A DNA stretch of 63,425 bases, filler included, from 13 parts of 13 records of this genome joined end to end with filler, not necessarily neighbours in it, one strand, 5' to 3'. Counted from the first letter of the whole stretch, positions 24,201 through 59,661 are shown. Translations and numbers: made by a program. Notes: generated by a model not told the origin, from the letters alone.

Positions 24201-26582
24201 AGCAACATGGAGACAGTCTCACGACACGATTACATTGCCGCTGTGGGTGCATCGGAGAATGGCAGCGCGACTGAGCTGGCATTGGCAAAGTACATCGGTG
24301 CCATGTATGACCGAATTACTGGAGCAGGTGTGGCACTGAGAGACGACGACGCAACGTGGGATCAGAACTACAGCGTGGGTATGTACGGGCAAGTTGATCA
24401 CGATGAGCGAGCACTTCAACTTAAGAGCGCAGTTGAGCTTATGATCAACGGAAGCCAGATTCTCGACACTGGTTGGGAGTGGAAAGCAGGCTCGCGTTGG
24501 TCAGTCGACCGCAAGCAAGTGGTTGACACTGACAAGGACGGCTGGAGCTATGCTGCTGATTGGCAGAGCTGCTGGTACTCGTCTCAGAACGACGTCATTT
24601 GGAAAGAGGCAGAAATGAACGACCGCAATTGCACGCAAGTCGTGCGGCGGCGCCGGTGGGTCCGTCCTCGCGTAGACCATCCGATTACCGATGTTGGCCT
24701 GGCCGAGGAGGTTGTGGAAAGCTTGCGTGATGCGATGGGTGTAGCCGCATCGCGTCTTGCGCGTGTAAGCTCGCGCTGGCAACCAGAGCAACTCCCGGAT
24801 GAGGAGCGCGGTGTTGCTGGCCCAGCGGCAGATCATGGCTGGCGCTCGCTGCACGACTTTACAGCTTTCCGTGCGGTGCTCAAGTCTGACGCGCTCTGGG
24901 AACCGCTCGATGCGCAACAGTCGGATGTCGTGTTCTACTACCGTCAACGTTTGCGAAACCTGCCAGAGATGACACCGAAGCTGCTACTCTGCGTAGACTG
25001 GCAGCAGACGCGTCAAGTCGAGCGCGCACTGCGATGCCTCTCTGAACACGCGCCAGTTCCATGGCACATCGCTCTCCAGCTACTGGACGCTAGATATCCC
25101 CACTCATCCGTTCGGCTCTATGCAGTCCATTCTCTTCGATCGGTCACAGATGAGCAGCTGATGGACTTTCTGCTGCAGCTAGTGCAGACGCTCAAGTATG
25201 AGAGCCACCATGATAACCCGGTTGCACGCTTCCTGCTCAATCGTGCTCTAAGCTGCCCACGACATATCGGCCATCGGCTCTTCTGGACATTGCGATCTGA
25301 ACTGCATGACCCAATGCTGATGGAGCGATTTGGTCTGCTCCAAGAAGAATATCTGAAGGGCCTGCGAGCGCCTGACTTCGCCCGTATCAATAGAGAATCA
25401 AAAATGCTCTCCGTGCTGATCGACTTGGCAGCACGCGTGAAGGCGCATGACCGCAGGAACACAGAGCATGCTGCAGCAAGGCAGACGGAGTTCTTGCGAG
25501 CGGAGCTCACGCGCCTAGGAGACGCCTCAGCGGACGAGTCAGGACTGCCGCCGACCTTCACCCTCCCACTCGACCCCTCTTTTGAGGCCTGTGGCCTACT
25601 GGCAGAGAAATGTAAGGTGATGGGATCAGCACAACGTCCGTTGTGGCTTGAGTTTCAAAATGCCGACCCATATGGTGACCCGCTTGCAGTCATCCTCAAA
25701 ACAGGTGACGATCTGCGGCAAGACATCTTGACGCTGCAGATGCTCAAAATTATCGATCAAATATGGAAGGCTGAAGGACTGAATCTCTGGCTTGTACCGT
25801 ACCGGTGCGTTGCTACAGGTGAGGAGCAGGGGATGCTTGAGGTCGTTCCTGGGAAGACGCTCCTCCAAATCATGCGCGAAGGCTCTGGAACTACATCGCG
25901 AGGCTTCATCACATCCACGACGTGGCTGTCGAACTGGCTCCGGGCCCAGAACCCTTCTCCAGAAGCGTACGAGGAGGCGAAGGCGCGATTTCTGCTGTCA
26001 AATGCTGGCTACTGTGTGGTACAGCACGTGCTTGGGATCGGCGATCGCCACCCGTCAAACATTATGGTCAAACCTAATGGGAACCTGTTCCATATCGATT
26101 TCGGTCACTTTCTCGGCCATTTCAAGTACGCGGTGAAGTCTATCGGCGTGCTCAGGTACCCCAGCACTGTCCTCCTCTTCCCTTCCTTGTCTCGCACCTG
26201 TTTTCTGCGATCGCAATGGCCGTGACAACGGCTGTTCGTTCGATTTTGTAGGGAGACGTCGCTACCGTTTACAGACGCTCATGTTGAGGTTCTCGGTGGT
26301 CGAGATTCGGCTGGCTTTCGCAAGTTCGTCGAAACATGCTGCGAAGCGTTCTGCGTGTTGCGGCGCCATCGCGATCTCTTCGTTGGGTTGTTTTCGATGA
26401 TGCTCGGCACAGGTATTCCGGAGCTGCAGTCCCACAAGGACCTGGCGTACCTGAATGAGAGCCTCATGCCAGAGGCTAGCGAGGCCGAAGCCAAAAAGTT
26501 CTTCGCTGGGAAAATCTTTGAGGCTCTGGAAAATTTCCGAGATCGAGTGAATCTCGATCTTGCCCACGCGCTGAAGCATTGA
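21237..26582 (+). CDS. Class I-like phosphoinositide 3-kinase with GYF_2, PDZ, SH3, RBD, C2, Sec7-like, DysF, helical and kinase domains (5' truncated)
   Basis: Kinase: CKVMGSAQRPLWL, KTGDDLRQDILTLQM, LGIGDRHPSNIM, LFHIDFGHFLG. Helical: ALQLLD...LLQLVQTLKYE. Intron 26156-26251, then an exon ending AHALKH*. Confidence 0.93.
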
Positions 26583-27334: not shown

Positions 27335-27434
27335 NNNNNNNNNNNNNNNNNNNNNNNNNNNNNNNNNNNNNNNNNNNNTTAATTAATTAANNNNNNNNNN
27401 NNNNNNNNNNNNNNNNNNNNNNNNNNNNNNNNNN

Positions 27435-27518: not shown

Positions 27519-28237
27519 CAATGTTATAGCGTACCCATAACGTGATCTATCGTCGGTCTGGTGGGCGCGCGAATGCTAAAATCAGATGAAATCAGCGATT
27601 CTCCCAGGTAGCATTAGTATGTAATTGGTATGTACCGGTGTGCAACACCCGGCCATTTGACCATGTCGTCTAAGTTATTGCACACAGCACGTCAGCCGCC
27701 TGTCGCCGACACTGATTCTATTTAAACTCCTGGAAAGCGAACGAGATCGCGTCCGCTGTCATGGGTACGTCTCAGGGCAATGGATGTGCTATCCTGGCAG
27801 CGCTGGTGACGGTGATTGCCATGTCGCATTGGCTGCTTTGTTCTCGAGCATTGGCCTTTTGAACTTTCCTCTACCTCACAGGTACCGGTAGTATCGGTAT
27901 TCATCACGATTCTCTGTATGAAATACAAGCGCCGGAGTGTATCATGAATAGTGTGTACACGCTCACGGATTGCCAAAATTGCGGTGCCGACGGTGGGAAA
28001 ATTGCATGAACGGTCGTCGTGTGGGACAGCCGGCGTTGCGATGGATTAGCCGTTATCGGCGGGCTGGATGGGCATGGCCCCCTCCCATACAACTGGCTGG
28101 GGCATCCGCTGCGCCCGTGGCAAGGTGGGATAGGGTAGGAGCGGGCTGTGGGGCTGTCGGGGTAAGAGCGGTTGTAGTCGGGGTCCCACTGGGCAGACGA
28201 CTGCACGTGCTGAGCGATTCGATCTTTTTGAGCGACG

Positions 28238-31200
28238 ATGACGGAAGCGAGCGGCGGCACAAGCTTCCACATGCCTGGTGTGGTGGATCAGGTGGTCGAG
28301 CAATCTCAGTCGCGGCTCCCGCTCAATCAGGAGGGCGATGGTAGGGAATCTCCACGGCCAGGGAACGTGGCATTTAGGAAGAAACCATCCGCCGACAGCC
28401 GCAGCAGCATCGGGCAACGGACGAGCACAACCGGCCGCTCCGGCGCAGGAAATGGCGGTGGACACATGCCTTCGGTCACGCATCACATGAAGCCAAAGCT
28501 CATGAGTATGCTCAACCCATGGGGAGGTGAGAGCCACCCTATGGCGGAGGTCAAGGGAGCGCTTACCGTGACCGTTAAGACGGGTCCCATGGAAGGTGCG
28601 GGTACGGACTCGCGCATCTGGATGCGAATCCACGGCAAAGAAAAGGACTGCTATAGTCCAGTCTTCGAGCTCGAGCACGGCCGCAATCGCCACTCTTTCT
28701 CAAGAGGGCAGCTTTTCAAGTTTGATCTCTCGGCGCCGTACCCCCATGTTAGCTTGAGAGACGACGTTGATGAAATCAAACGATCTGGGGAGAACATCAC
28801 GCCGCTGTGCAAGGATATCAAGCAAATAGAGGTCTGGCGTGATGACGGGCGTGACGTTGCGCTCGACGGCGAAGATCCATCGTGGTTCCTGTCGCGCGTC
28901 ACCATCGAGGAACCGCACACGGGTGAACACTGGGATTTCATCTATGACAACTGGGTAGAAATGACAATGAACGAGCGAGCACTGAAGGCAATCGATGCTC
29001 CCGACCAAGATATCGTAGACCAGGAAACGGCGATGGCTAGGATTGCCGCCTGTCCACCAGGCGCGAAACTGGAGCACGTAGTCCGGTATGACACAATGCG
29101 GCTTGAAAAGCTCGGAGGGCTGGTTAACGTTAGCAATGCTGAGACAGAATTACAGTGGTGGACTGCGGGTGATGGGGTGCGACACTATATTCTCTTCGCG
29201 ACAATAGACAAGATCATCAGCCTGCTAATCATTTTCACCATTGTATGCGACATCTTTCGCGAAGAAGTCGTTAAGGAGTGCGTCGTTCTGCAGCTAGATC
29301 ATATTGATGACCCAGATATCGCTGGTTGTGATTGGGCTAGTGGGGCTGCCTCGCTTTACCCTTGGCTGCTGGGATTGGACCTCTTCATCCTGGTTATATT
29401 TCTGCTGGAGCTGGTATTCCGCTTTTTGTTGAAGTACTGGGGGATGCGGAACGTTTTTGCTCATGTCCTCAAGGGCTATAATCGCAGGTACCGCAAGCTT
29501 GGGCTGGAGGCTTTCAAAAAGAACGGGATACGTCGCAGTGATCCACAGCGCACCAAACACCCATGGTTCATGACGCTGTATGCCCCGGGCAACGAGCAGT
29601 TCAGAAAAGAGTACGAAGATGTCATGGATGGTGATTTGCATGCGCGACAACGGATCCCTTTCAACTTTTTGGCCAGCGAGTCGATGTATGTGGTCATATT
29701 TGAGCTAGTCATAGTCGTGGCCGCTTTTAGCACACAAGCCGTATACATTGCTATATCCGATGGAACAATCAATAAGGACCTGACCGGCAACGACATAGCG
29801 AAGGTGGTTAGCATTATGCGAGTCATTCGGGTCACCCGAATCGTCACACGGATTAACAAGCTGCGCCAACTGGTGGTGGCCCTAGCTATGGCTTTCACAG
29901 GAGTGCTGTGGATCTTGGTACTTGTTCTGGTTGGCTCGTATGCGTACGCTATTGTGGGTGTGATGTCGTTTCGGACCGACGTCACAAACAGCGCAATTAT
30001 AGAGACTGAAGACTGCGACAGCGCCTGCGTTGCCGAAAATCTGGACGGACTCTTTGGTGACCTGTGGAGTGCAGGCAAGACGCTGTTTTTCAACGTCCTT
30101 TTGGGCGATAACATCGGTGATGTGCTTCAAGTAGGATATTCTGGTCCTGGTAGAAACTGGATCTATGTCTACGTGATCTCGTACTTGGTCATCTGTGTCT
30201 TTTTGCTTATGGAGGCCGTCACTGGCTACATTGTGGACATCATCAGCAGCAAGTACCAGCAACAACGCGCTGTTGATGCTCTTCCTTTTGCGGCAGTCGC
30301 ACGCGTTCGCGTGGTTGATTGGTACGAGTCGCTCAAGCTTCATCCTAACAAGAAACCGGACCGAACAGGCGAGCAGCAGTGGCTAGGAGCATGGATGAAT
30401 GCTGCCATCAAAACAGGCAAGATCAACATCACCAGCGTCGATCATGTCCGTCGTATGCTCCGACAGATCAAGAAATACAACCTTGAGTACGCGCAAATGG
30501 AGTTTGAGCCTACAGCGGGATGTGCTGACTTCGAGCCGTCCGATTGGCTGATCGGTGTGCGTTCTGAGGCAGAGATGACGCGTCTACTTGAGCACGGATT
30601 CACTTACTGGGACAAGAGCGACAAGGGGGCACCAAGAAACCCAACCCCGTGGGAACATGAACTGGATCCGGAAACTGACGGCCCTATTACGCTGACAATT
30701 CCAGTGAGCCGTGAGAATGAAGGAGACCTCATCCAACTCGTCGGTCTTCGCACACCGTCGTTTGCTGTAGAGGAGCATGTGATGGAGGCTTTTCAGGAGT
30801 ACGGTGTTGTGCTCAAGGTGGAGCGAGAGAAATGGGATCTTCCGGAGGACCCGCAAAACCCAGAGGAGATTGCTGAGCTTGAGCAGACGCACACTCTTCT
30901 GTGGAGGGTTCGTTTGTATATGAACGAAAAGCAATTCCCAGTGCTTCCTGTGGAAGAATTCCCCACCGGGCCACAAGCGCAACTGCGGCGCCGTGGAATG
31001 CTCGACTGCCAAGCCATTGAGATTTATGGCCAGATGTGCCCGATTCTGCCTGAACGACTCGAGCGGCCGCACCAAAAGACAAAGAGACAGTCAGATCAAC
31101 AAGACGACACTGGCCTGGCGAAAGTTCTTCCACGTTTCTTGATGTCCGAGCTCTTCGAGTTCGCGCAGACTTTCACACCTGACGAAGAGGACCACCAGGA

Positions 31201-33358
31201 TAGAATCGAAGATGCTCTTGATAGTGTCCTGCCGAAGGAAGCCCTCATCGAGCATCTCATGACACCGCGTGCTGTGCTTCAGATTATACAGGTACCCGCC
31301 GGACAGCCTTTTCCAGGGCAGCCTATCTCAGAGGCAAGCAAAAGACTGGAGAAGAGCAAGTCTGCATCTGGCCCAAGGCAAACATTTGCTCAGCTGAGTT
31401 GGAGCGAGCTGCAGGTTCACGTTGAGCATTTCCGTTCGCTGGGGCTCATCAAGAGCGAGGATGAGGCTGCTGTTGATGCGAGCAACAACCCGAAGGAGGC
31501 TTGGATTGATATCTTATGCCAGCTTGAGGCCGAAGAGAGTAAGTACACTCGCGGTTTCGGATGGAAATCCAAATGGGACCAGCTTCGCGAGGCTACAGAA
31601 AACCTGAAAATCAGCCTCTATATGACCTGTGCCGGCATCAGAGAGCTCACAGGCCCACAGCTTCAGACGCGCGCGCTTGAGGATTCTGGAGTAACGGTGG
31701 ACGAACTGGATGCCGCCGTTGCCTACGAAATGTGGCTGCGCGCGGACAACGAAGACACAGAAGATGACGTTCGGAAGGAGTTAACCCCTCTGCTGGAAGA
31801 AATTTTGGATCAAGTGATTCACTATCTATACCCAGATGGAATGGCTGAAGGAGGCTTGACACACGCAATTCCTGGAAGACAGCTGATGTCGCCATCAGGT
31901 GCATACGAGGACGATCTGACGCCTACGGAACAGGCATATCTAAGCACGTCTTGTTTTAGTGCCGTGCCACTGAAAGATCTGACCCCAGAGTTAGTGCCGA
32001 TGGAATGTTTCTTCTTGTTTTGGGACAGCACAGCGAACAAGTTTACGTCGAACTACATGAAGGATTGCCCAATCCTCAGGCATCGAGAGGTGGCAAAGCA
32101 GATAATAGCTCTTGTTGAACGTGAAGATCGACCAGTGTTGGAAAAGATGGAAATCGTGGCAGCAAAGCGGGAGGGGGCACTGAAAGCAATCTTGCGCCAT
32201 TTCGATATTGGTGGCACCACGATGGCAGAGCTTGATAAGCATATTGAGAACATTAGCAACTCATCGCGCAGTCATTCTGATACACTGTCTCAATTTACAA
32301 TATCTGAGCTTTATAAACTGGCCAAGGACGAGCAGCTGCATCGCAAGTTTGTGAACTATAAGCGAGAGAGGGGTAGAATTATCCAGGCGATCGTCCAGCA
32401 TGAGACCAAGCTCCACAAGTCTTCAGCCAGTGAAAGAAGGTTTCTAAAAGAAGTGTCCCTTGCAAGTCTGACCGACGAACTACACCAAAGATCGACTGCT
32501 GAGCTACAAGAAATTGCCAAAGAAGAGTTAGGTTGGGTTGCCGATGAAAAGCAGGACCAACTGCAGGCGGCCCTAGATTCTGAAAATCCGAAAAAAGTCC
32601 TAATCTGGCGGCTGCTCGAGGCGGGGGCTCACCCCGCACCAACCTCTGATTCGGAAGGGTTTGAAGAGATTGCCACCAAAGGATTCAGTCTTGCACTAAA
32701 GGTTCCACAAGACAGCTGGGAACAGACAGAGAAGGAGCTGCGTGAGCTCGCCCAACAGAAACACAGTCCAAACATCCAAAAATTGCTGGACCAGGCTTAC
32801 CACAAGGTACGCAGCACCAGACACCAGATGGGCTTGCCGGGGCAAACTGGTGCGATGCATGCACCCACAACACTCGCTCCCTGGGCAAGTCAGATGCAGA
32901 ACGACCTGGCGAAGGTATATGAGCGAAGCGAAAAACTAGACCGACACACGGTGCGCCTGATTTGCGTTGCAAGCACTATTTCGTTGATTCTGACGCGCGT
33001 TAGGAAACTGCTACCGTTGCTCTGCATCCTTAATGTCTAACGCTACACATGTTGCATGTGTACACTACCCAGACCAAGCTGCACGATAAGGTGGCTTTCA
33101 TGAGTAACGATCTTGGCAAAATCCTCAGGGATCACGGTCGAGCGATCACGGGTGCGTCTACTCTACTGGAAGCTTTGCGTCAGCCCATAGATACGGCGAA
33201 TCGTTTACGGTAGTCGAGCAAAAGTGTCGCAGCAACTGTGTCGAACTTCTAGTAGCTTGCACTCTGCACTGTGCTTAGCCACACATCTGCACGCGTTGTG
33301 CTCAGACACACACAAAACCATCGAGGAGGACGAGGGTTACGACGTGGTGCATGGATGA
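28238..33358 (+). CDS. PLAT/LH2 + single-domain 6TM voltage-gated cation channel with long cytosolic tail
   Basis: PLAT: TVKTG..GAGTDSRI...SWFLSRVTI...WDFIYDNWV. S4: MRVIRVTRIVTRINKLR. Pore: FGDLWSAGKTLF..LLGDNIG, then S6. Two short terminal exons after 32950. Confidence 0.88.
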
Positions 33359-35079: not shown

Positions 35080-35736
35080 GCGATCGGAGGCAGCACGAGG
35101 CAGGTGTGGCACGAGGCAGACAGCGTCCGCTCGCAGCGTGGACGGTTCGTGAACACTGTTCGCTGTGCCCCCAAAATCGGCGGTGAAGCTCTCGATCACT
35201 AACGCTTTGCTTGCTTGCCCGTACCGCGAGTATCCGCGCGAGAGCGGCGCTCGCGCGTGCTGCCGGCGCTCCGATACTCGAGACTCGTACGGCGCATTAG
35301 GAATAGCCGCGCGCGCGGGGGCGCGGGATCGATAGATCCCAACGCCTCGTTTGCATATTACAATCTGGGCACTGCACGCGCTTTTGATCAGCCGCAGTTA
35401 CGGTATATCATCATATACATGTTTGACAACCATGGCACGTATATTGCATTCAAATATCGTACAGCGCGCTAAAGGCCGATAGCGCCTGCGTCGTCAGGGT
35501 GCGGTACCGTGTACGTGTTCATGGACGATTTCAGATTTTACACGCGAGGTGCAGCACCGCGCGAAAAACGGCCAGATTGTGTGTACACACGAAAATCCCG
35601 TACTCTAACCGAACGCGCCCCAGCTAGCTGCGACGGNNNNNNNNNNNNNNNNNNNNNNNNNNNNNNNNNNNNNNNNNNNNTTAATTAATTAANNNNNNNN
35701 NNNNNNNNNNNNNNNNNNNNNNNNNNNNNNNNNNNN

Positions 35737-39261: not shown

Positions 39262-39897
39262 TCGCAGCGGCCGAGCAGTGTGTCGACTGACGATCAACCG
39301 CCCGGGGTGGAGGCTCAGATTGCTGCGGCGGGAGGCAGGGGCGTGCAGTGGCGTGCGGTGGCAGCTACCCCTGGGCGCGCGAGCTCACAGTGCACGCAGG
39401 TTCAACGCCGTCACGGCGGGTGCCCGGCGTTCGCGTTCCTCCGGCCACGCACTCACCGACGGCGCGCGGGGCGCGTCAATCAGTCAAGCCGTCAACCGTC
39501 AAGGCGCGATGTAGCATGTACTTGTATCGTGAATCGTCGCCTGCCTATCGAGTAAAGTACCGTACTAACTACTATGATCTATGCGTAGATCTACAGTACC
39601 GGTAGGGGGTAGTGGTACGGTCGATCAACATACTGTGTGTTTCCCATGTTCTGAGACTTCNNNNNNNNNNNNNNNNNNNNNNNNNNNNNNNNNNNNNNNN
39701 NNNNTTAATTAATTAANNNNNNNNNNNNNNNNNNNNNNNNNNNNNNNNNNNNNNNNNNNNTCCTGACTTGCATTTCCCGCATGCGTAAGCCGCCAGCTAG
39801 CATACTCTAGAGTAGGATTGACGCTTGACGGTTGTGCACCCACGCACGGTCGCCGGTCGCCCCGAATCCTCGCCGACCGTGCGTGGGTCGGGCACGG

Positions 39898-42983: not shown

Positions 42984-43810
42984 GAGGTTGCCCCATGCAG
43001 CTGCAGAGACGGTGATTCTGGCTACCCAGGTTGGCGGCTGCTACGGTTGCACTGCTTTATGCGTTTAATCGTTCCCATGGTCGTGCTATGAGAAGATGGG
43101 TGAATTATGCTAGCGACTGTGAATAAGTTAAGTAGCACGTACTCGCAAAAATAATGTACGATTTGAATGGTTGCGTTGCCCCTGTTGGCCTCCGTTTGCC
43201 CCCCAGCTCCGGAGACCGCAGATCGGGCTCGAGGTCGGAAAGTTGCTGCCACAAGACTTCTAGCCAACGTGGCAGCGCGCACTGGTCGTTGTTTCCCAAA
43301 CCTAAACCCACGGTCGCGACCGTAGTTTCCGAAACTAGAGTGTGCAGGGCTCGCCCACGACCTCAAGCAGACGCCAAAACTGACAAAACCGCATGAGGTC
43401 CGTTCTCGCAGCCACCTCCAGTTTTCGCGAGTGATCGCGATCCTGACTGCACCATTACATGTATCGGACAGAACCCTGAGAGCCCCTTGGGCCTCAACAT
43501 TTTGGGTTGTACCAAGCGCACGGTGGCACGAATCAAACAGTCTACCACCTTGGTAGTATGCGGCGTGCAGTTTCAAGTGTACTAGATTACCTTCTCCGTA
43601 AGATTAATATGACTTCGAATTTCNNNNNNNNNNNNNNNNNNNNNNNNNNNNNNNNNNNNNNNNNNNNTTAATTAATTAANNNNNNNNNNNNNNNNNNNNN
43701 NNNNNNNNNNNNNNNNNNNNNNNCCCCCCCCCCCCCCCCCCCCCCTCCCCCCTGTTAGCCGATACTTGCAGTATAATGATACTGCAAAGATCGTGACTTC
43801 ATGCTTGTAG

Positions 43811-46090
43811 GCAGACCAACGGTGCATTTACAGGCATGCAAGCTTCCGGGCTCTATCGTGCTTGGCCAGGACTTTACCAATGCCGAACCGAGAACCAGTG
43901 CTCAGGGTGCTCGGACCCCCGCTTTCGCGGTTGGTAAGATTGTCCTTGGTACATATTCTACTTGTCCTATTGCCTCCCGTGACAATCTAAACGCTGTAGG
44001 TACGCCTCTGCGGCCTCTGGCGCGAAAGATGTCGTCATCGTGATCGATTCTTCGGGGAGCATGAAGACATCACATCGGATGGACCACGCGAAGATGGCAG
44101 CTTCGTGGATTATCAACACACTTTCCGAGACGGACTACGCGATGGTTGTCTCATTCAATTCCGAGTCTACATCCGAGGCTACTAACTTACTCCAGTACGC
44201 TCGCGCCAAGTTGCCGGGTTGATCGTTTGTCGTTTGCGCTCGCTTCTTACCTTGTTCCCTGTCCATATGAGTGTGAATCGACACATGTCCATACCCCGCG
44301 TATGTCTCATATACGCAATCTGATTTGACTGCCTTCTGGATGCAGAATGAACGCTCTGAATCGTGCACGGCTGAAGGATTTTGTCAGCACGCTTGAGCCA
44401 AGCGGTGGAACAGACTTCAAGGCTGGCTTTAGCATGGCGTTTGACATCCTCGATGAGGCTGAGAGGATGGGCGAGACTTCGAACTGCCAATCTGTGATCT
44501 TGTTCATGACGGACGGTGACGCTCCTGACCCGAGCACCATTGTTAACAGTCGCAACGGTGGTCCCTATCATTCGACCCACCCGAACACCGAAGCTGGTCG
44601 ATATACTCGGATCTTCACGTATGCGTTCGGCGAAGGTGCAGAGACGGGTTCAATGCGAAGTGTCGCGTGCGAGAATGGTGGTGTCTTTCATCAAATCACA
44701 GACGATGACGGCCCGCGTCTCAAGGAAATCATGGCCAACTACTTCGTACGTACACAGTAGTTTTCCCACTCTATTGGGAAACGTCACGGCCAAAGCGCAT
44801 ATTCAACGCCAAAGTGTGCTGGGGTATTCTAGACTACTACGACTTTTTTTGAGTAGGATTTTCTAATGTGCCTTTTCTGGCGCATGACCCTCGCTGCAGG
44901 TATATATGGCGTCTGGTCTTGTTAGCTGGGAATCTGATGCACTGCCTCCTGTGCGATGGGTTGACGACTGGGAGGACGGTCAAGGACGCGGGCACATGGC
45001 CGGGGCTTGCTCACCCACCTTCGACTTCAGTGACGGTAAAGAAACTTGTTGACATTTCGCCGACAAAGCCACGCATCCACCAGCTTCAATTGTACATCGA
45101 TTTGCAGATTTCACTTCCAAGCTATCTTGCAGATTTCTGAGCAACTGTTCGTGCCTGTTGCCGCGTGCAATTGCAGACCCTCCATTTTTACTTGGTGTGC
45201 ACTGCCTCAACATCAACTATGAAAAATTCGAGGAGCTACCCGGTTTTGACATGGCCATGGCGACCGCTCGCACGGACCGCCAGAAGTGTGAGGATGTCAG
45301 GCTCAGCTGGCAGCAGCTGGAAAATCTTCGCGGGAAATCTGCCTTCACATATACATGCGACCGCGGTCTCAGCGGGTCATCGCCAGGAACTCCCACGGGG
45401 GCAACCGATGACGACGAGTGCCCATGCTCGTACAGCAGAAAGATTGCGTCACAATTACCAGGATATGAAGATGTGTGGGACGAGGATACGTGTGAGCTTG
45501 ACGAGGGCGGTTCCTGCTGCAACATGTGGTTCTCGAATAAGGAATTTCCGGGCGAGTGCACTTTTGAGCCCAATTTTTGGTTCTGGGTTGTAGTGGTTCT
45601 TGGTGCAGTCGCCACGATGTGTTGCCTTGCAAAGCTCTATGAAAAATGCGATTTAAAAAGACGCTGGCATGGGAGAGCAGCTAGACGGCGGGAAGCTAGA
45701 CGGCAGGAAGCAGCTAGACGGCAGGAAGCTAAACGGCAGGAAGCTGAACGGCAGGAAGCTGAACGGAAGGAAGCTGAGGAGAGGGAGAGATTGGACAGAA
45801 GGCTGAAAGAAGCTGAACGGAAATCGAAAGAGGCGAAGATAAAGGAACTGGAACGGGAACAAGAGGAAGCCGCAAACCGTTCTCAACAAGAGGAAGCTGC
45901 AAGAGCTGCCCAAATGCAGTTTGCTATGGAGGGTATGGAGGGGGTTCCGCCAGATGGTCATGCCAAGGACACAGCAGTGCCAGTAGCGATGGTGGTCCCT
46001 GTTACGACAGCGATGGTGGTCCCTTCGATCCCTGTTGCGACGCTACAGGCACCAGCGTCGGCCTCTAACGTCGAGGCACACAATCCATGA
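43811..46090 (+). CDS. alpha2delta/CACHD1-like VWA type I membrane protein (5' truncated, multi-exon)
   Basis: GLYRAWPG..DPRFRGW|YASAASGAKDVVIVIDSSGSM (MIDAS), ILFMTDG, RIFTYAFG, VACENGG. TM FWFWVVVVLGAV, then RRQEA repeats. Four in-frame GT-AG introns. Confidence 0.85.
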
Positions 46091-46202
46091 GATAAGCCAA
46101 GCATGCTAATGGGTCGAGTAACGACGCAAACTCCATTCGTGATCAGTTTATGATCAGAAAATGATATTGACTACGGTACCTGTCATTACTCTAACACTGC
46201 AA

Positions 46203-49200
46203 CTAGGGTAGGGAGCCAGCGATAGACTCCACGACCCGTGTGTTGTCATTCGCTAGGTTCACTTGAATAATTTGGCTAGGTGGTGGGTGAACCATCTTCC
46301 TGGAAACAGCGTTGGCACCAAAGCGCACCTCCCTGAACACACGCGAGTGCGACTTTTGTTAAGCCACATCGATGTATCAAGGCAAGATGGCGCAAGCTAC
46401 ACGGAAGACGCCGTACATTTGGATCCTGGTGCCATTTGATAGCCTAATTTCAGAGACGCGAACAGAAGATTTCCCGCTGTTCGAGCATCAGTGTACACAC
46501 GCGCACACAAAGTACAGCAAACATGCAGCACATGCCGGGTGAACATCAGTGTCGAAAAGCAAATGACAAGATGCACTTCTCAATCTGACCTATTACGCGC
46601 GTCAAAAATGAGCCGGTTGTCATTTGCTGAGTAAGGGTGCCGCTGCCCATCGGGTCCGACGTGGCAGAATCCAAAAAGCGGTGGAGGCTGCCGGCCGATG
46701 GCCACTGTCGGTCTGCGTTGCGGCTCTCCGCTAGTGTGTTGTCTACTGGGGGTGCTGCTGCTGCCAGGCAGGATCCCTGCTTGTTGTCGATTGCGGAACC
46801 TTTTGATTCCACCTCGATTCGGATCAAAGGCTCCACGGTAGTAGCGGACTCGGTAGCGAGGGTCTGCGAAGATCGCAGCGGTGCTTGTCAGTGTAGCCAA
46901 ACAAAAAGCAAGCGGACGGATACTCACAAGCCCGCCCATTCTCATAGACAATCCAGACTTGAGACCTTGGGCAGGTGGCATTCTTAACCCAGGTTCCATC
47001 AGGTTGTCGCTGGTCGGTCTGCGTGTAGCCACGCACAGTATTGCATTTGAAATTTCCCCGCATCGCAGGGCTCCTGGTGCACTTGTCCACGCCATCTTTG
47101 GTCTTTACAACACCTACTGCACTGCAGCCGTCGATTGTCGGAGGTGTCTTAAGCTCGTGACAAGTTTGCTGCATTTCTTGGCTATCGTCCCTGTCCATCT
47201 CGATCGTGTTTCCAATTAGGAGACTCACCAACATCATCTCGCACTCGTCATATTGCATGCCCTTACTTGCCCCACCGTCCTGCAGGGTGCTGGCCTTCGT
47301 TGCATAATTGTGGCTATATCCAGCTGTTTCTGCAATGCGCCATCACAGCCACAGTTGTCACACTCTCCAGTGAGTCACCGACAACGAGGTTCATTACAGG
47401 ACAAGCGAATGGAGCCGGACGTACCCGCGAAATACAATCCGCGACCCCATTGGCCCTGGCTTGCAAACTGCATCCTATCAACCAGACATAGATCAAGAGT
47501 AAGGCAGAGCGTTCGAGTGAGCCAGGCAGACAGGCAGCAAATATGATCTGAACTGTGCTTGTTGCTCACATGAAGCCATCCTGGCGATCTAGGTAGATAT
47601 TTGAACAGTCGAATGCACCTGTCCCATGCCAACCGAGCACCTCTTTGATCTTCCCATCCTGACCAAAAGCGTTCGGTGCTTTTGGGGCTGGACCACCGCT
47701 TCGTGGAACAGGTCCATTGCTCTTTTGCAGCCGCTTTTTCTGGCTCTCGAAGTATGTGTATAAATCTGGGTTTTGGATTCTGTGCAGCTCAGTGATCCAT
47801 GCATCGCGCATGCCCTGTGGATTGGACGAACGGTTAGTTTTCGGGTCGACGCGCGCAAATTCAGCATTCGGGGCGCGCGTCAGATACTCGTACACGTCCC
47901 AGAATTCGGCTTCGCTCTCATGCACTCGTATCAGACCATCCTTCGGCAACTGCACTATCCGCTTGCCGTTGGGGGCGGTATCGTCGTCTAGCTCCACAGC
48001 ATTGCGTGGATCGAGCTCCCATTCTTCAGGATAGCTTATGTTCTGCTTCTCGAGCTCCATACTGGCCGCTTGAGCTTCCAGAGCCGCTGCCATTGTTTCT
48101 TGGGCCCGTTTCGCAGCATCCTCACGCTTCCGTGCGTTCTTTCTCTTTGAATATCGCCGCTTGAGCATAGCACCAGCGACAAAGCAGACCAGTATGGCAG
48201 CAAAAACAGCGTAGATCCTATAGGACTTCTCGACGATCCGCCCACCACATCCACATGCACACTGTGCATCAGGGCACTCACACGCACCCTCCACTGTGCA
48301 TTCGCCGCCCGCCAGTTCACAATCACATGAGCCTAGGTCGCCGGCGCATTCATCATCTAAACCTTGCACTGGGCACACGGCGATTGCGTGCCAGATCATT
48401 GAGACCCCACGGCGTCCAGCAGAAGCCACTCCAGAAGACGTGGTGACATCATTGCGGTCAGTTTGGATATGTACATCGAGTGGAGTGGTCGTCTGGATGT
48501 CAATGTGGGCACGCACAGGGCACATCTCGTCAATGCATTCTCCCGTCTGCCAAGAGTGGCTACATTCCGAACTCCTTGAACACGCTTGATTTCTGAGCAC
48601 GACAACGGTGGTATCGTAGCTTATAGCAACACGGTCTCCCGCATTTGCAGGTTCCAAGTCGAAAGTGTTAATCAGCAGCCGAGTGCCGACGTGCGTTCCT
48701 GCTGACAGCGTCGCGGTCTCAAAGCGACAGTCTGTCATGGCGGGAATCGAGATCGTGTCAGCATTACTTTGGATCAAGCCGGCGGTCTTTCCTGGGTATC
48801 GCAGAGGTCCTGGGGAGCAAGTGGGTGTGGCACAGTCTATACCTGCCCAGCCCGGGTTGCAAACGCATCTTGCCTGAGTGGCAACATCTTCACATTGGCC
48901 AGAGGCTGTAGAGCATTGTGCTGCACAGACAAACGACCTGGTGGTGTAATCCGCAGTGAAGCCACTCCTCCTGCCCTTGTCATCAGTAGTGTAGTACAGA
49001 CTTGCCACACCGTTAATGGAGGGAACGACGACTGTCCTAATTTTGTGTCCTGTTAGTCTAGAGTACACCTCTGCGTTTGTACCTGTTCCTGCTCTCACTT
49101 CTAGCCAGTCAAATGTGTCCTCCAGGTCAACCTCAATGTTGAATACTACGATGGTTTCGAACGTATGGACTTCAAACAGACAAGACGCCGAGTTCGCGTA

Positions 49201-51148
49201 GCGATGTGTACTCTCCAATGAGCTAGCAGCTGATCTAAATGTGCCACTCGGAGTGCTTGATATCACCTTGCCCATGCAACCCGCAAGTGAACAATCGGCT
49301 CCCGTCCAGCCAGTATCGCACTCACACAAACTTCGTGGATGGCCGAAGAGCGACTTCTCAATACACCTCCCATGGCCGGAGCAACTCACGTGATTGGTAC
49401 AGCCTGGATGGGATCGATTGAAGCTGAGCTCCCATCTACACACCACGTTGATTCAGTTCAAGAACGAAAAGTGAATGATGGTCCACACGATAGTGGTCCA
49501 CACGAGATGCGTGGGAAAGAAGGGGGTCTCACCCATCGCCTTGAGGCAAATTGTAACACTCCTCTGTGTTTGAATCCGTGACGAACTCGACGAGAATGGA
49601 GCCGGCAGATCGGAGTGGTGGAATCTCTGGATCAATCCCTTGCAACTGTGCAAGGAGTGGACCTGTTGGCTCCCCGTAATCGTTGACTGTATCTCCTTCG
49701 TACAGGCGGACAAAGTCCCCAGACCACACGCGAAACGATGTGAACGTAACTTCGACTAGATTTGCATTCCCCGTGGCTGCAGGAATCCTAAAAATGCAGT
49801 GCATGTTGTTCTCGTACGAGGCGCCGACCACACCTACCGGCACCGTAGGTTTGTCTGTGAGCGAGCCTGTGACATCGTTGCCAAATGGATTTATGAAACG
49901 AAGATCGCCAGTGCGGGGGTCGCAGCTACCCATTTCGCTCGAGCCGATGAGCCTCGGTATCGTCGTGGTGCCCGTGCCAGCCAATGTGTCGAGGGTGACA
50001 GAGTGCATGCCACTGGCAGCAAAAAGCACGCTAGAGTCGATCATCTCTTCGAAGAAATGTGCCGTGTTTGTGGAGGATGGGTAATGCTTGCCTGACGGCA
50101 CTATCGCAGCAAGACCCTTTTGTTCCATGAAGAACGCCGACGTAGCCCCGATTGCATCGGCAAGTCCGCTGATAGGCCGTGTCTCGTAATGATCGCAGGA
50201 CTCTGGATGAGCGAGGTAATGGCAACCCAGTTGCGTTTGGGTGGAGTAGAAATTCTTGCTAGCCATGTCTTTATGCAGGTCTGACCTAAGCTCCATCGTC
50301 GACGTCAGCTCTCGAGGTCGAGAAGAGGAAAGAAACTGCAAGATCGAGGCCAAGAATGTCGCATTTCCAGGTTGGCTTGCGTCCCATGCTGCGTCGGCGG
50401 CCAGCCAGCTATCATCTAGCAGCATTTTCACCCGGGCGATATGCTCCAACAACCCAGGGTGACTGGCGGAGAAATTTTCGTGCGCCGCGATAACAATGAA
50501 CGTTTCCTCGCCCCAGCTTTTCAAGTCGCCCGAGTCGACTATGACTGTCCCGCCAGTGGCCTTTAGGTGGAGAAAACCTTCGCCCCAGACGTATGCGCCA
50601 TCGATAGCTTCTGCGTCCCAAGCCGCAACCAAGGCCGCCGGCGACATATTGACCAACGTTACGCACGAGAAATCTCGTTCAGAGGGACACGCCGTGTGCT
50701 GGCAGATAGACAGTTGCAGCTTGTCGAGCAGGAAGAGCAGGTGGTAGTGGGCCGTTGAGCCGAAAGGGCTGGCTAGACACTCCCCCAACATCTCGAGTGG
50801 CCCATGCGTTTCGCGGACGGCCAGGCCTTGGCTCGATCCGTGCCCGTGTGCCATTTGGAAGGTGGTCGCACGCACGCCGCGCGAGTTGGAGATGGCAGCC
50901 GGTGTGGAGCCAAGCAGCGAGACATCGAGGTCGCCCTGGTCGAGCCTGGAGACGGCGTAACTACCCGAGGACTGTGGGTAGCATCCCACCTCGTATTCGT
51001 CGGTATCTAGCCAGTGGCGTGCGCAGGCCACAGCGAATGGCATCGACTCCGAGAAGTAGCCGAGGCGCACCAATGTCTTCTGCGCCGCTGATTCTCGGCC
51101 CTGTAGCAGCACCAATTGCGCAGCTGCAATGCTAAGGCCAGTGCGCAT
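46203..51148 (-). CDS. Type I membrane protein: TauA-like solute-binding domain, CUB/EGF repeats, TM, PARP-type ART domain, WWE (about 1465 aa, 7 exons)
   Basis: Exons 51148-49533, 49435-47570, 47474-47425, 47329-46928, 46863-46590, 46476-46417 and 46332-46203 total 4398 nt, all GT-AG and in frame. ART motifs RIQNPDLY, WHGT, GRGLYFAE..YS.NYA, VWIVYENGRAYP.Y. Confidence 0.85.
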
Positions 51149-52051
51149 CACACTCCGCACACAACGCAACCCAGGTCTGAGCTAGCCCGACGCACCCGAT
51201 ACGCGAGCCCAGTAGTGTACACACGCTAGCGCCGTGGCGTCGCGGGCGCGCGTACACAACCGCGCCACGCGTACGACGCGCGTATAATCGTGTATGCGCA
51301 AACGAGCCAACGCCGATTTGATGGCATGCGCATGCACGCTGTGGTTCACGCGCTGTGGCTCGCCGGATCAAACTGCGGGAAATGGAAGTCATAATGGACA
51401 ATCCGGCGCTTGGGCGCGATTCAGTGATTTTCGAGTCATTCTTTCGTACAAAGTTATGATCGAGTGGCCTGATCCGAAAACCTCAGAAATAACATTAATA
51501 TAACAGTAATAAGTAGATACACAGAGAGAGTTGCCAGCCCNNNNNNNNNNNNNNNNNNNNNNNNNNNNNNNNNNNNNNNNNNNNTTAATTAATTAANNNN
51601 NNNNNNNNNNNNNNNNNNNNNNNNNNNNNNNNNNNNNNNNCTCGCGCGAGTTGCCGCCGGATTTGGTGCAGTTTTTTCGCTTGATGAACAACTTGTCGCT
51701 TGCCAAGGAAGCGGCTGATGCAGGACGAAACGAATCTGCGGGGAGGAGCGTGTCCACTGACGGAAGCTTTGTATAGGCTTCATTGTTGCCGTAGCATACT
51801 GGTAGCACATCAGGCTGAGGTATTATTAGCCGGTAAAGTCAATGTTGATAGCTGTCATCCACTTCGCATTCATCAGGATAACTGGTGGTGCATGCGGGGG
51901 AGGTTACTGAACCACAATCGGTGGTGATTCGTCATCAAAAGAGTACAATAACAACAACGCGATACAACTGACCGCAAGCGGACAACCCCTATGCATCGTG
52001 AACACAAAGGGCATGAGCCCCCTCCCCCCCCCCGCCCTCTTCTCCCTCTCT

Positions 52052-53370
52052 CTACGCGAAGTCACGGTCGGGGAAGAGCGGCGGCGCCACCATCGCCCAG
52101 ATGTAGATCACGTAACAGAGCCAACTCGAGACAATTTTGAGCCACACGGAGAGCGTCGAATCCGTAAGGTTAATATCTCTTTCGGCTTGTCCCTCAGGTG
52201 TTTCGCTGACAATCTCGCCCCACCTCGTCAGCAGCATAGCGCAGTAGCACGCAGCCAGCGCAAACATGACGTGAAACTGTGTGTACGAGTACGTCACGCC
52301 GCCCTCCGCCTCTGACTCGTCGTCGGCCTTCTCGCCGGTCTCCTCCCCATTCTCGTTGACCGGGGCGGCCAGCAGTGGGGCCTCGGTGTCGCCGCTGTCC
52401 ATCGGTGAGGCGAAGAACGTGTTTGAACCGCTACGGATCGCGGTCCAGAGGATGGAGACGAAAACAAAGAACAGGCCCACCGTCTTCATCCAGCCGGAAC
52501 CGTGTTCGATCCCCAAGACGTGACAGTTCATGCCCCATTTGTCATCATCTGCCGCGGGGCTGTTAATCATTGCCGAAAAAACCAGGTAGCATGCGTAGGC
52601 CGAAACGATGCCCGACTGGAATACTCCGTTTCTGTGCCCGGCACCGTTCGGAGCGTCGCGAACGAAGTTCGAGATCGAGCACGCGGAAACGATCAGCATG
52701 AAGATCATGTTGATCAGGCCTGCCATGACGCCGATCCAGCAGCCTTCTTCGTGGTTGTTGTTCACGAGCACGATTGCCACGAACGTGAAGATGCAGAAGC
52801 CGTACGAGCCAAGGCACAGCAACATCGTCAGCCAGTTCCACCAGATGATGGGTCTGCCGAAGCAGGCGGCCTCGCAGCACGCGCTGTCGCCGTTCTCTTC
52901 GTCTTCGCCCAGCTGGAGTAGGTCTTCGTACATGTCGAAGCTGAAGGCGCAGAGGTACATAAGCTGGAGGAAAATGAACAGGAACGCGCCCGCCTTGAAC
53001 CACTCTCCCACGTCGATGACAAGCTCCCCGGGCAGGAAAAACATCGCGATAACGAGCCCCAGGAACAGCGGGATCTTCACGCACCAGAGCTCGTTCTGGA
53101 GCTTGGATCGCACGTCCGACGTGCTGCGCACGCCGCACAGGCAGCACGCGAGGACGGAGTGGAAAACGAACACGCCCATCATGACGCGGTACACCGCCAA
53201 CGCGCCAACTGTCTGTAATGGTACCTGTGGCACCTGCCCTTCGACCAGTCCGCCCCACCAGCGGTCGCTCAACGCTCCCTTGATCCCCGTTGCTACGCTG
53301 TCCGTCAACATGAGGGCCGACGCCAAGATCGCGATGAACAGCAGGATGGCATACACCATGCGCGTCGCTG
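52052..53370 (-). CDS. SERINC: Serine incorporator (Serinc/TDE/TMS) family membrane protein, N-terminus unresolved
   Basis: TRMVYA, GALAVYRV, RSKLQNELWCVK, GAFLFIFLQL, YSYTQFHVMFALA..Y.AMLLTRW, WLKIVSSW...APPLFPDRDFA. Confidence 0.92.
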
Positions 53371-55109
53371 CGATGAAATACACACACCAAGCAGGCACAC
53401 AAGAGTGGGTTGTCGTAGAAGCCGCCCGTGTACCCAAGCACGCATGCGACTACAACTACTAACGCAAGCGGTGCGGCGATAGTGTACGGCAGGCTGACAA
53501 TACCAGCAAGCCTACTTCGCTTTGACCGGTTGACGGACTGTAGCTGATCGTCGGCCATGGTATGCTGCAGACCATAGTCGGGATTGCCAGTTGCCACTTG
53601 TAGGAGCTGGCGTTTGCCTGATGCGCGGGACTCCGAAGGGACAATTTGTGGCGCCACGCGGGACTTCGAATCCACAAGCGAAAAGGTGACACACGCAGGC
53701 TGTGTGCCTGCGGGCGCTCCAAACTTCAGCAAAATCTGGAGGCACACTCCACATGGACTAGCGCGTGCGCAGATTTGACCCACTTCCGCAGCACTAGACC
53801 TCTGCCGGATCATGTGATTGCGAAACTTCGAAGAGCAATCGCCACAGTATGGATGCCCACTATAGCCGAACTTTCGCCTGTGCAGACAAAAGCAATGCCG
53901 TTAGCTCACGATTCATTCACGACTGAAACTGATCGGGCGATTCAAGTTTCTGATTGCCACAGCAGGAAACGCAGGGCACACAATCGGCCAAACGATCTGC
54001 TTGTCTCACCAGAACTTCCCGAGGCTGCGCCTCTCACAAGACTTGGCACAGTACGGGCAAGATGCCATTTCCTCCTTTTGGGAACCGCGGGCTTCCTCCT
54101 GTGGCCGTGGCCGTGATGATGCGCACTCATCTATGCGAGCATATGCCTCCTGGTGGGTGCAGGCAAAGTGGCTGAGCACCGCGGTGCAGGTGCTGCAAGG
54201 TCCGTCCCGATAACACCTCTCCACGGAGACGGTTCGCTTGATCATGTGGGCACGAAAGACGGATGCACAACGCGAGCAATACGGTGGCCCACCGTAGCCG
54301 AACTTTCCCCAGTGGAATCCGAGGCGATGGTGACCCTCGCAATCCCGCTGGCACAGCGGACACGTAATTGTCTCGTCGGCGGCGCCGATGTTCATCGCAA
54401 GGCCCACGGCGGGATTCGTTGCGTGGATGGTGCGCGGGCCACTTTGACTTGGGCCGTACGTCGGATGGTGGCTCGGCTCGATCGTGATCAAGTGGTCGCA
54501 GCGAGCGGTGACAGCAGTTGGCAGCGAGCTGGGCGGCCGAGCTGCCAGCGTCTGGCAGATGCGTCCTTGCTGTGCGTGCTGCAAGGTCGTTCGTGCAGCA
54601 ACTGGTGGATCAACCGCGACCATGTCCGTACCGACCGCTGTTCTCCCACTCAGTACAGAAATGCCACAGGGGTCCCTGGGGTTGGCGGTGTTCGACTCGT
54701 CAATAGCCTCGCTTTTCAGCGCCAACGCAGACGCGTCCCACGCAAGCGATGGTGCGGGAACTCCAGAGCTTGATGCCCAGTACGCTGCCCCCCCGAGCGT
54801 AGGTGCCGCCGCACCGCCAGAGGGTGCCGTACGTCTGCTCATGGGAAGGTCAAGCTCCCACGGACTCTCAGAACCGTCCAGCCACTCACTTGCGTCTGTT
54901 TCTGAAGTCCCACCCGCGGCGAGGATGGAAAAGCGATCCGCATCGCCTCCACTATTAGTACCCATCGTCGACCACCCAGCAGAATCGTTGCAATCGAGCA
55001 CTGCTGGATCGCCAGCGTCGCCTGGCCTCGACGACGGCCCCCAAAAATTGTTTTCAATGGCACACCACATTGTGTCTGGATCACCGGGCGGAGTGTCACG
55101 CGCTTCCAT
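53371..55109 (-). CDS. Tandem Cys/His Zn-finger protein with basic motif and TM segment (3' end unresolved)
   Basis: Intron 53878-54009 joins ORF 54006..55109 in frame to ORF 52563..53813. Two copies of CxxCxxxC...WxKFGYxGxPYCxxCxSxFRxHMI...CxRxxPCxxC, then KRSR and LALVVVVACVLG. Confidence 0.7.
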
Positions 55110-55924
55110 TAGAGCTCACGCGCTCCAACTAGAGCTGCAGCCAGCACCCCCGGGGGCCCGGGCCGGGCCGCGGCGGGCGCAGGGCGATGACCTGGCGTGC
55201 GGGACTCCTACACTGCTACTCCTACTGCGCGAACCAACAGCAACACGCTCTCGGTGCGCCGTGTACACGGTGTTGTGGCGGGTGCTGCCCAAGCCGCATT
55301 CGCACTGCAAAGTGCAATATTCAATACCGGTACCGGTACCGGTAATTCGAATTATCACGCCCGTCGACTGCGTCATGCGTGACGTCTGACGAACCGCCGC
55401 TGGGATCCTTGGCTCGAACGATGCGCCGCGGCACGGGCCCCGCGCCGCAGACACGCGAATTGGTTTTGGAACTTTCCGCGCCGCTCCAAGACAATGTCTA
55501 CTAGATCTAGTACCGGTACACGTTCCCAGCCGACCGCCGACCCCCGAAATCGGCTGTCAGCACAAACTCAGATNNNNNNNNNNNNNNNNNNNNNNNNNNN
55601 NNNNNNNNNNNNNNNNNTTAATTAATTAANNNNNNNNNNNNNNNNNNNNNNNNNNNNNNNNNNNNNNNNNNNNCCGGCGCGTTGAACGGAAGTGTCGACT
55701 CATCCAGATGGAGCGCAGGAGCGGTGAAGAAGGACGGACAATTCGGACAAATGCGACGATGACGGATGTTCGTGTTGCATCATCGATCATGCAGTCGAAT
55801 CAGATGCGGCATGAGCCGGCCGGCGCGGCCCGCGCGCGCCTCCGTACCGAGTTTACGTAGGACCCGCGCGCGGCGCCGGCGCCGCGGGCGGCGTACGTAC
55901 AGTACCACCCGGGCTGCTTGGGCG

Positions 55925-59094: not shown

Positions 59095-59661
59095 CTCGCC
59101 GAGGTGGCCCGGCCAGCTGGCCACGGCTGCTCTCGAGGCGCTGCAGTGGATGCCGCCTAACAACAACGAACACGCTCAGCGTGACACGCGCAGCACGCGC
59201 ATCGGCACGCGCCTCGCGATCGGTATCGTAGCGCGCCGCCGCGATGCGTGCGCGCGCGCGCGGGTACGACGGTACGTCGGTACGCGACCCGCGTACCCCA
59301 GGGTATGCGCGGTCCGCGGTGCAGTGCCTCAGGAAGAGGCATTTCGGAAATTCTTGTCGAGAATTCNNNNNNNNNNNNNNNNNNNNNNNNNNNNNNNNNN
59401 NNNNNNNNNNTTAATTAATTAANNNNNNNNNNNNNNNNNNNNNNNNNNNNNNNNNNNNNNNNNNNNACTCACCTGGGCACTGCAGTCTGATCGACGACGC
59501 GTCTGGCGCACGACCGCGGCACGATCGACCGGCGCGCGCACGTTCCGCGATCGGATCATCGCCCGAGTAGGCCGCCTATCGATCGCGTGGGGGCGTGCTT
59601 CCAGGAAGGTCTACCGACAGTAGCGACGTCAGGAAGGTCTACAGTAGCGAGCAGCGCAGCG

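Follow-up and report, generated by a model that had tools for sequence, protein, structure and literature searches.

The stretch of eukaryotic DNA analysed here (63,425 nucleotides, hereafter the window) carries on its minus strand, at 51148-46203, a gene whose predicted product combines a signal-peptide-like start, a TauA-like solute-binding ectodomain with CUB and EGF modules, one transmembrane (TM) helix, a PARP-type ADP-ribosyltransferase (ART) domain and a WWE-like tail. The window consists of 13 separate pieces chained by 12 linkers, each made of 44 N, TTAATTAATTAA and 44 N, and TTAATTAATTAA has stops in all six frames. Genes flanking a linker therefore need not be genomic neighbours; the receptor-PARP gene lies entirely within the piece 43724-51540. 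DNA near-identical to the window is present in many marine metagenome runs, and among named sequences the encoded protein comes closest to predicted proteins from Picozoa single-cell genomes (EukProt). P0123 is 68% identical to exon 1 of the gene, and P0110 (Picozoa sp. COSAG04) belongs to the P0053 cluster. Judged by protein similarity, the source organism is probably a picozoan or a close relative.

Gene structure and integrity of the locus

The gene is organised in seven exons separated by six GT..AG introns of 97, 95, 95, 64, 113 and 84 nucleotides in order, and splicing yields a 4398-nucleotide frame of 1465 amino acids with one terminal stop (Table 1). When stop-to-stop frames are considered, the unspliced minus strand shows two long open frames and several short ones; the initial annotation had joined several open reading frames (ORFs) through six GT-AG introns into a frame of this length, and that figure was reproduced exactly. 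Database relatives are colinear with the window protein across all six junctions. The unbroken PQGDG/W of P0123, P0001 and P0002 confirms intron 1, and introns 2-4 are confirmed by relatives that are continuous through DKQDGFMMQFASxGQWGRGLYFAE..YS and VWIVYENGRAYPxYxVRYYRG. At the 3' end, the P0055 tail ..NGQALRFEVRFGSKAVSAKLNQVPDSGMIQVNMDTQMTRVVEEV leads to a 60-nucleotide exon at 46476-46417 and a last exon starting at 46332. Two candidates were given up for this P0055-colinear model: a five-intron model of 4305 nucleotides, wrong at its 3' end, and a 93-nucleotide exon with a GC donor. Splicing is further supported by a family ART profile made from 63 proteins of the databases and free of window sequence. 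Among 1479 six-frame pieces it finds matches in three different frames of the window, which follow one another colinearly at profile positions 36-98 (E 1.6e-18), 99-117 (1.6e-6) and 114-211 (4.7e-23).

RNA evidence bears directly on one of the junctions. An oligo-dT RNA contig (run X17) joins 47329/47425 exactly, skipping 95 nucleotides with minus-strand GT..AG ends. This joint is absent from DNA run X1, and the same intron-3-crossing contig ceases aligning at 47474, the start of exon 3. Further RNA contigs cover parts of exon 1 (50522-50816) and exon 2 (47621-47771 and 47879-48291), the last of which, from a second study, spans the TM helix. A 33-nucleotide X17 match at 48829-48861 has loose ends on both sides and was taken as unrelated. 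No RNA contig was found on introns 1, 4, 5 and 6 nor on exons 5-7, so that the junctions of these introns are placed by homology only. Among the junctions of the initial annotation, that of intron 3 was thus seen spliced, and the one singled out there for confirmation, intron 49436-49532, is homology-based.

The end of the ectodomain, the TM helix, the basic stretch that follows it and the N-terminal half of the ART domain form one open frame within exon 2; the join between ectodomain and ART domain consequently needs no splicing. This continuity bears on the possibility that the gene is an artefact, with two genes fused by a wrong gene model or by chimeric assembly, as might be suspected in a window assembled from short pieces with linkers and for a gene that no single read or contig spans as a whole. 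However, the metagenome contig L001 (63% identity), from another organism, has the same join, with an equal Cys-rich end, TM helix (YLTYVIMFCILVCFVLGACL), KRKHSKRK and ART N-terminal half. DNA run X1 gives depth in 30 of the 30 bins of the gene stretch, an RNA contig lies across the TM region, and the architecture recurs in dozens of relatives. It is very unlikely that the gene is a chimera or owes its extent to a fused gene model, the single gene of the initial annotation stands, and the predicted architecture is highly probable. In L001 (1-1560) an extra intron lies directly after the TM helix and basic stretch, at a point where exon 2 of the window is continuous.

Ectodomain, membrane topology and ART domain

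Residues 25-355 match the taurine-binding protein family (TauA). On the NCBIfam model TIGR01729 they score 108.5 bits (E 4.1e-31), where the cut-off for an equivalog is 304.25, and the solved E. coli TauA (6ssy) is matched at E 4.2e-24 by the single sequence and at 3.3e-32 by a three-sequence profile. A weak second stretch (0.5 bits) extends this alignment to the C-terminal helix, and exon 1 also matches Pfam NMT1_2 (E 3.9e-7). The TauA/SsuA-like binding domain put forward in the initial annotation can therefore be specified as TauA-like, and on these scores the predicted sensor is a relative of TauA and not an equivalog. The part of the TauA study that concerns the pocket lists Gln30, Gly61, Gly79, Glu106, Thr132 and Asp205 as taurine contacts, of which Glu106 and Asp205 hold the amino group, and reports that E106A abolishes binding (PMC6906117); the offset of 21 between the PDB chain index and this numbering was inferred in the present analysis. 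Gly61, Gly79, Thr132 and Trp176 of TauA are conserved in the window, the first three as Gly62, Gly80 and Thr132. At TauA position 205 the paralogue P0001 has Asp and P0002 has Asn.

The series CUB-EGF-CUB-EGF-CUB originally assigned to the rest of the ectodomain was recovered in part. Both EGF modules were detected by Pfam, one of them (EGF_Teneurin) with 33.9 bits, as was the second CUB (27.5 bits); the first CUB scores 19.2 bits, under the cut-off of 21.4, and the third has no Pfam match in the window. Cubilin and the CUB-EGF-CUB part of MASP-2 are among the further matches of the ectodomain profile. Cysteines number 41 in the 923 residues of the ectodomain and 8 in the 501 of the cytosolic part. 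A 70-residue N-terminal piece used as query found nothing, and the AlphaFold2 model of exon 1 (4-row alignment, mean predicted local distance difference test (pLDDT) score 34.3) was unusable.

The TM helix (IYAVFAAILVCFVAGAML, residues 946-963, 48216-48163) is the only one that a hydropathy scan finds in the protein (score 2.24) and is followed by the basic KRRYSKRK, as had been described. Lysines and arginines number 3 in the 15 residues before the helix and 9 in the 15 after it. The N-terminus, MRTGLSIAAAQLVLLQGRESAA, has a 12-residue hydrophobic core followed by SAA/Q and, by eye, resembles a signal peptide. Taken together, these cues support a type I orientation with a predicted cytosolic ART domain, which is separated from the TM helix and basic stretch by a helical linker.

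The motifs of the ART domain, RIQNPDLY (residue 1091), WHGT with H1142, GRGLYFAE-TAGYSHNYA and MMLVSLLIG, were found where they had been placed; GRGLYFAETAGYSHNYA carries Y1175 and Y1186, and SQVWIVYENGRAYPRY carries V1302. A 157-residue cytosolic piece retrieved 50 relatives at E <=0.001, 28 of them at <=1e-10 (HMMER, 1.84 billion representatives). Ten of the 50 were scanned with Pfam: three, from relatives 45-58% identical, pass the PF00644 cut-off of 26.7 (P0030 with 37 bits, P0010 with 32.1 and P0031 with 29.2), four fall below it and three have no PARP match. A profile of eight relatives and two window exons matches the solved structures of PARP12 (1.5e-7) and PARP14 (3.9e-5), and also PARP15. 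In its alignment the triad His is matched by WHGT, the Tyr by GLYFA and the Ile of PARP12 IFVIFE by V1302. On the family ART profile the protein encoded by the spliced frame reaches 203.8 bits. The cytosolic part of exon 2 alone gives a weak PARP14 match (E 0.007) at the correct place in the domain, and exon 4 alone matched no solved structure at E 10. An AlphaFold2 model of P0055 (67-row alignment), with pLDDT mostly 80-96 over the ART core, resembles the catalytic domains of PARP15, PARP10, PARP12 and PARP14 (target TM-scores 0.74-0.78, E about 1e-10). The PF00644 character initially ascribed to the C-terminal region is thus recovered through relatives and profiles and not by separate exons in Pfam.

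The residues of the triad are H1142, Y1175 and V1302, so that the hydrophobic residue which the initial annotation had seen in place of the catalytic Glu is present. In 63 relatives, which are 23-45% identical to P0055, His and Tyr are found in all, whereas the third residue varies between Val (57 relatives) and Ile (6). This H-Y-hydrophobic triad supports the assignment of the predicted ART domain to a PARP12/14/15-like, mono-ART subclass, and the invariance of His and Tyr argues for a working NAD+ site. The active mono-ARTs PARP10, 12, 14 and 15 have such a hydrophobic residue in third place, whereas the inactive PARP13 and PARP9 have lost the triad His. Both observations speak against the idea of a pseudoenzyme receptor, in which the ART domain would bind NAD+ or ADP-ribose, or act as a scaffold, with no transfer, like PARP13 or plant RCD1/SRO. 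The absence of the catalytic Glu and the long inserts relative to human PARPs would suit such a protein; it is nevertheless improbable in view of a His and Tyr retained at this level of divergence.

The C-terminal tail (residues 1377-1460) occupies the place of a WWE domain and resembles the tail of P0055. Comparison with WWE by hhalign gave a weak match in the correct register (probability 13.8%, P 0.002), and in the P0055 model the tail has a low pLDDT (50-59). A true WWE domain (PF02825) follows the ART domain in diatom relatives (P0057 with 46.8 bits and P0069 with 54.6), the order in P0057 being ANF_receptor 42-383, PARP 525-701 and WWE 753-823; P0054 reaches 23.6 bits for WWE, against a cut-off of 21.1. 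Of the WWE-like end proposed earlier, the place and register hold and a significant match in the window does not; the tail could possibly be a degenerate WWE domain.

Sensor and output domains among relatives

Receptor-like PARPs of this kind are not confined to the window. With the cytosolic part of P0031 as query, 59 proteins (622-1980 residues) were retrieved, about 45 of which have both ANF_receptor and PARP, and about 40 of those also WWE. An architecture of ectodomain, TM helix and PARP domain, for which the initial annotation had proposed a search, recurs in dozens of these relatives, mostly in the order ANF_receptor, TM, PARP and WWE. Among those with a named source are proteins from Helicotheca tamesis (UniRef 'Poly [ADP-ribose] polymerase'), Fragilaria crotonensis, Seminavis robusta ('polymerase 11'), a Pseudo-nitzschia gene model, MMETSP transcripts and Picozoa. 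A strongly hydrophobic helix is present in 51 of the 59 and, in those with ANF_receptor, lies about 120-180 residues ahead of the HGT motif.

A tree was made of 60 ART domains, with P0009, P0030, P0116 and P0117 omitted because they are truncated or nearly duplicate others. In it, the 50 domains of receptor type fall into one clade (Shimodaira-Hasegawa-like approximate likelihood ratio test, SH-aLRT, 100), separate from soluble WWE-WWE-PARP forms and from multi-TM forms. The window falls in a clade of nine rows (SH-aLRT 99) with members that have ANF, Peripla_BP_6 or Cache-like ectodomains. In P0101 and P0102, WWE and PARP come after four or five predicted TM helices; the ART domains of these two cluster with the soluble WWE-WWE-PARP forms, outside the single-pass receptors.

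The ectodomain of the window likewise occurs with other partners. P0001 (1456 residues) has a TauA-like and CUB/EGF ectodomain, ANF_receptor, a TM helix and a short tail, with no ART domain; P0002 (1978 residues) has the same kind of ectodomain, a multi-TM block and a long C-terminal region in which no Pfam match was found at E 0.01. By domain composition, the family is a common, predicted cytosolic module joined to interchangeable sensors (ANF_receptor/Peripla_BP_6, Cache-like, TauA-like), and such shuffling of sensor and output is what would be expected of signalling receptors.

Other genes of the window are listed at the foot of Table 1.

Table 1. Exons and introns of the receptor-PARP gene, linkers and other genes of the window (positions from the first nucleotide of the window)
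Feature	Position	Strand	Content
Exon 1	49533..51148	-	aa 1-539; signal-peptide-like start MRTGLSIAAAQLVLLQGRESAA, TauA-like domain ~51076-50084, first CUB-like module ~49822-49562
Intron 1	49436..49532	-	97 nt GT..AG; P0123, P0001, P0002 continuous across PQGDG/W
Exon 2	47570..49435	-	aa 540-1160; EGF 49374-49270, CUB 49206-48928, EGF 48921-48796
Exon 2, later part			CUB-like and Cys-rich stretch, TM helix 48216-48163, KRRYSKRK, helical linker, ART N-terminal half from ~48033
Exon 2, ART motifs			YPEEW, RIQNPDLY, WHGT with H1142
Intron 2	47475..47569	-	95 nt GT..AG; relatives read DGFMMQFAS unbroken; RNA contig alignment ends at 47474
Exon 3	47425..47474	-	50 nt, (M)QFASQGQWGRGLYFA with Y1175; family ART profile positions 99-117, E 1.6e-6
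Intron 3	47330..47424	-	95 nt GT..AG; skipped in oligo-dT RNA contig (run X17)
Exon 4	46928..47329	-	aa 1178-1311; ETAGYSHNYA (Y1186), MMLVSLLIG, IEMDRD, NTVRGYTQTD, SQVWIVYENGRA (V1302); family ART profile E 4.7e-23; aligned with P0031, P0043, P0010, P0009
Intron 4	46864..46927	-	64 nt GT..AG; relatives read ENGRAYPxY unbroken
Exon 5	46590..46863	-	ART domain end (YPRYRVRYYRG), low-complexity linker, start of WWE-like tail (FCHVGPDGQRHPYSANDNRLIFDARN)
Intron 5	46477..46589	-	113 nt GT..AG; chosen by colinearity with P0055
Exon 6	46417..46476	-	60 nt, SGKSSVRVSEIRLSNGTRIQ(M)
Intron 6	46333..46416	-	84 nt GT..AG; colinearity with P0055
Exon 7	46203..46332	-	EVRFGANAVSRKMVHPPPSQIIQVNLANDNTRVVESIAGSLP, then stop TAG; matches P0055 tail ..FEVRFGSKAVSAKL..MIQVNMDTQMTRVVEEV
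Linkers 1-6	4385-4484, 7643-7742, 13580-13679, 17995-18094, 21136-21235, 27335-27434		
Linkers 7-12	35637-35736, 39661-39760, 43624-43723, 51541-51640, 55574-55673, 59367-59466		
Converging neighbour ORF	45053-46090	+	345 aa; one hydrophobic stretch FWFWVVVVLGAVATMCCLAKLY, long charged repeat (RRQEAxRQEAE..); no Pfam match at E 1e-4
Phosphoinositide 3-kinase with internal Arf guanine-nucleotide exchange factor (Sec7) domain	21192-26225	+	open frame of 1677 aa with SH3_2, PI3K_C2, Sec7, PI3Ka, PI3_PI4_kinase; combination unusual
Polycystin-like channel layout	28232-33040	+	open frame of 1602 aa, PLAT then Ion_trans
Serinc (serine incorporator) gene	52052-53449	-	single open frame of 465 aa, E 9.1e-85; next piece, past linker

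Proposed mechanism and comparison with known systems

The reading preferred here is that the gene encodes a type I receptor-PARP, in which a TauA-like sensor ectodomain, one TM helix and a mono-ART domain would turn ligand binding into ADP-ribosylation; with the mechanism included, its probability is put at about 0.6. The TauA-like domain would close on a small anionic solute, which is probably a sulfonate or some other oxyanion that has no amino group. The change would then be transmitted through the single helix and the linker, probably in a dimer as in receptor cyclases. A predicted complex of two copies of P0110 residues 591-930 gave a median of 0.48, against 0.37 for the control, values that speak neither for nor against a dimer. 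Mono-ADP-ribosylation of the receptor itself, or of cortical or nearby targets, would be altered as a result, and the WWE or WW tails of family members may read or recruit modified partners. What the sequence shows is the architecture, the cues to topology and an NAD+ site that is conserved; ligand-controlled mono-ADP-ribosylation is a proposal that goes beyond these, and the idea that ligand binding controls ADP-ribosylation has a nearly even chance of being correct.

The protein might instead be a membrane-anchored constitutive enzyme, with an ectodomain serving adhesion or nutrient capture and an ART domain free of ligand control, as in the anchored PARP16. CUB and EGF modules are typical of adhesion and matrix proteins, in line with the profile matches to cubilin and MASP-2, and the ectodomain of P0001 shows that this part can work without an ART output. 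However, members of the ART clade occur with at least three small-molecule sensor folds that are unrelated to one another, a pattern typical of signalling receptors, and the spacing of TM helix, linker and ART domain is nearly uniform across the family. Constitutive activity is accordingly considered unlikely, if somewhat less so than a pseudoenzyme.

Several observations weigh against the receptor-PARP reading and should be set beside the evidence for it. RNA shows one of the six junctions, in one contig of depth 3, and RNA cover is patchy. The signal peptide and the coiled coil were assessed by eye only. The separate exons of the window gave no Pfam PARP or WWE match at E 0.1, so that PARP membership depends on relatives and profiles. 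A profile made from 58 WWE domains of the family gives the tail of the window -0.1 bits, and an H-Y-V triad is in itself no proof of activity. Finally, three of the seven TauA pocket positions checked differ (Gln30 to Phe32, Glu106 to Gln107 and Asp205 to Ile218). As the pocket is without both of the acidic residues that hold the amine, the ligand is probably not taurine, which must be regarded as an unlikely candidate for this sensor. It seems probable that the pocket retains a main-chain anion cradle and has lost amine recognition, and the pocket residues point to a sulfonate or other oxyanion without an amine.

The receptor-PARP reading can be extended to the relatives. Diatoms, Picozoa and their relatives may possess an undescribed class of surface receptors in which the binding of solutes to interchangeable ectodomains leads to cytosolic mono-ADP-ribosylation, the window gene being a sulfonate- or oxyanion-sensing member; this extension is tentative and stands slightly short of even odds. 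PARP-family ADP-ribosylation is an intracellular response to DNA damage, stress and infection; to our knowledge, no surface receptor is known that has it as its direct output. The coupling of a sensor ectodomain to a conserved mono-ART family would, if the reading is correct, represent a new eukaryotic signalling logic, and it is found in a family that occurs in ecologically dominant marine plankton. Dissolved organic sulfur and related anions are major currencies between phytoplankton and bacteria, and the TauA-like sensor points to the sensing of such compounds. The hypothesis is open to direct test with recombinant domains and in genetically modifiable diatoms.

Full-text literature searches yielded no account of a PARP-type receptor that has a ligand-binding ectodomain, subscription journals lying mostly outside their scope, so that absence from print is unproven. 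The initial annotation had stated that no receptor-PARP class was described, and this agrees with the searches; the window protein is not unique, since dozens of such sequences are already public under automatic names. It is thus best regarded as a PARP-family mono-ART in an undescribed receptor architecture, a family member and not a singleton. In one passage of a survey, diatoms are said to apparently lack PARPs (PMC2964712), which suggests that the receptor-PARP expansion was overlooked there. Passages of a later study report at least two PARPs in Thalassiosira oceanica, and proteins with TM and PARP in sponge and Rhizaria (Perina et al. 2014, PMC4245714); these passages describe the latter as TM plus PARP only, with no ligand-binding ectodomain. 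PARP16 is attached to the membrane like the window protein, but it is tail-anchored and has no ectodomain.

The nearest solved structures to the ART family of the window are those of PARP12, PARP14, PARP15 and PARP10. The human PARP10/12/14/15 group (ARTD, PF00644) shares with it the P-x-W..EYW lead-in, RIQN, HGT, GxGxYFA..YSxxY, YPEY and the H-Y-hydrophobic triad. However, the human proteins are soluble, with macro, zinc-finger or WWE domains ahead of the catalytic domain, whereas in the window the ART domain is preceded by a signal-peptide-like start, a sensor ectodomain and a TM helix, and carries inserts, for example between IEMDRD and NTVRG. WWE, which precedes the catalytic domain in human PARPs of this group, follows it in relatives of the window protein.

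Closest in organisation are the diatom and Picozoa ANF_receptor-TM-PARP-WWE proteins (for example UniRef A0A7S2I1X7, Seminavis robusta 'polymerase 11', Fragilaria crotonensis MHU86_11628 and Picozoa sp. COSAG04 P0110), which have the cytosolic module and predicted topology of the window protein and ART domains of one clade with it. They differ from it in a sensor of the type I periplasmic-binding fold (ANF_receptor/Peripla_BP_6), in place of the type II TauA-like domain with CUB/EGF modules, and in a clear WWE, in place of a tail that appears degenerate. The ANF_receptor fold is also the sensor of the natriuretic-peptide receptor cyclases. The sensor of the window shares its binding-protein family with E. 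coli TauA, the taurine-binding protein of the TauABC importer (6ssy; PMC6906117), which is a free periplasmic protein, whereas the domain in the window is fused to a membrane receptor.

With receptor guanylyl cyclases and receptor kinases the likeness is one of analogy: the predicted layout of the window protein (signal peptide, ligand-binding ectodomain, one TM helix, helical linker and cytosolic enzyme) is also theirs, but the output enzymes of those receptors are unrelated to the ADP-ribosyltransferase of the window, and no homology is claimed. If the receptor-PARP reading is correct, proteins of this family would join receptor kinases and receptor cyclases as a third kind of enzyme-linked receptor with a single membrane pass.

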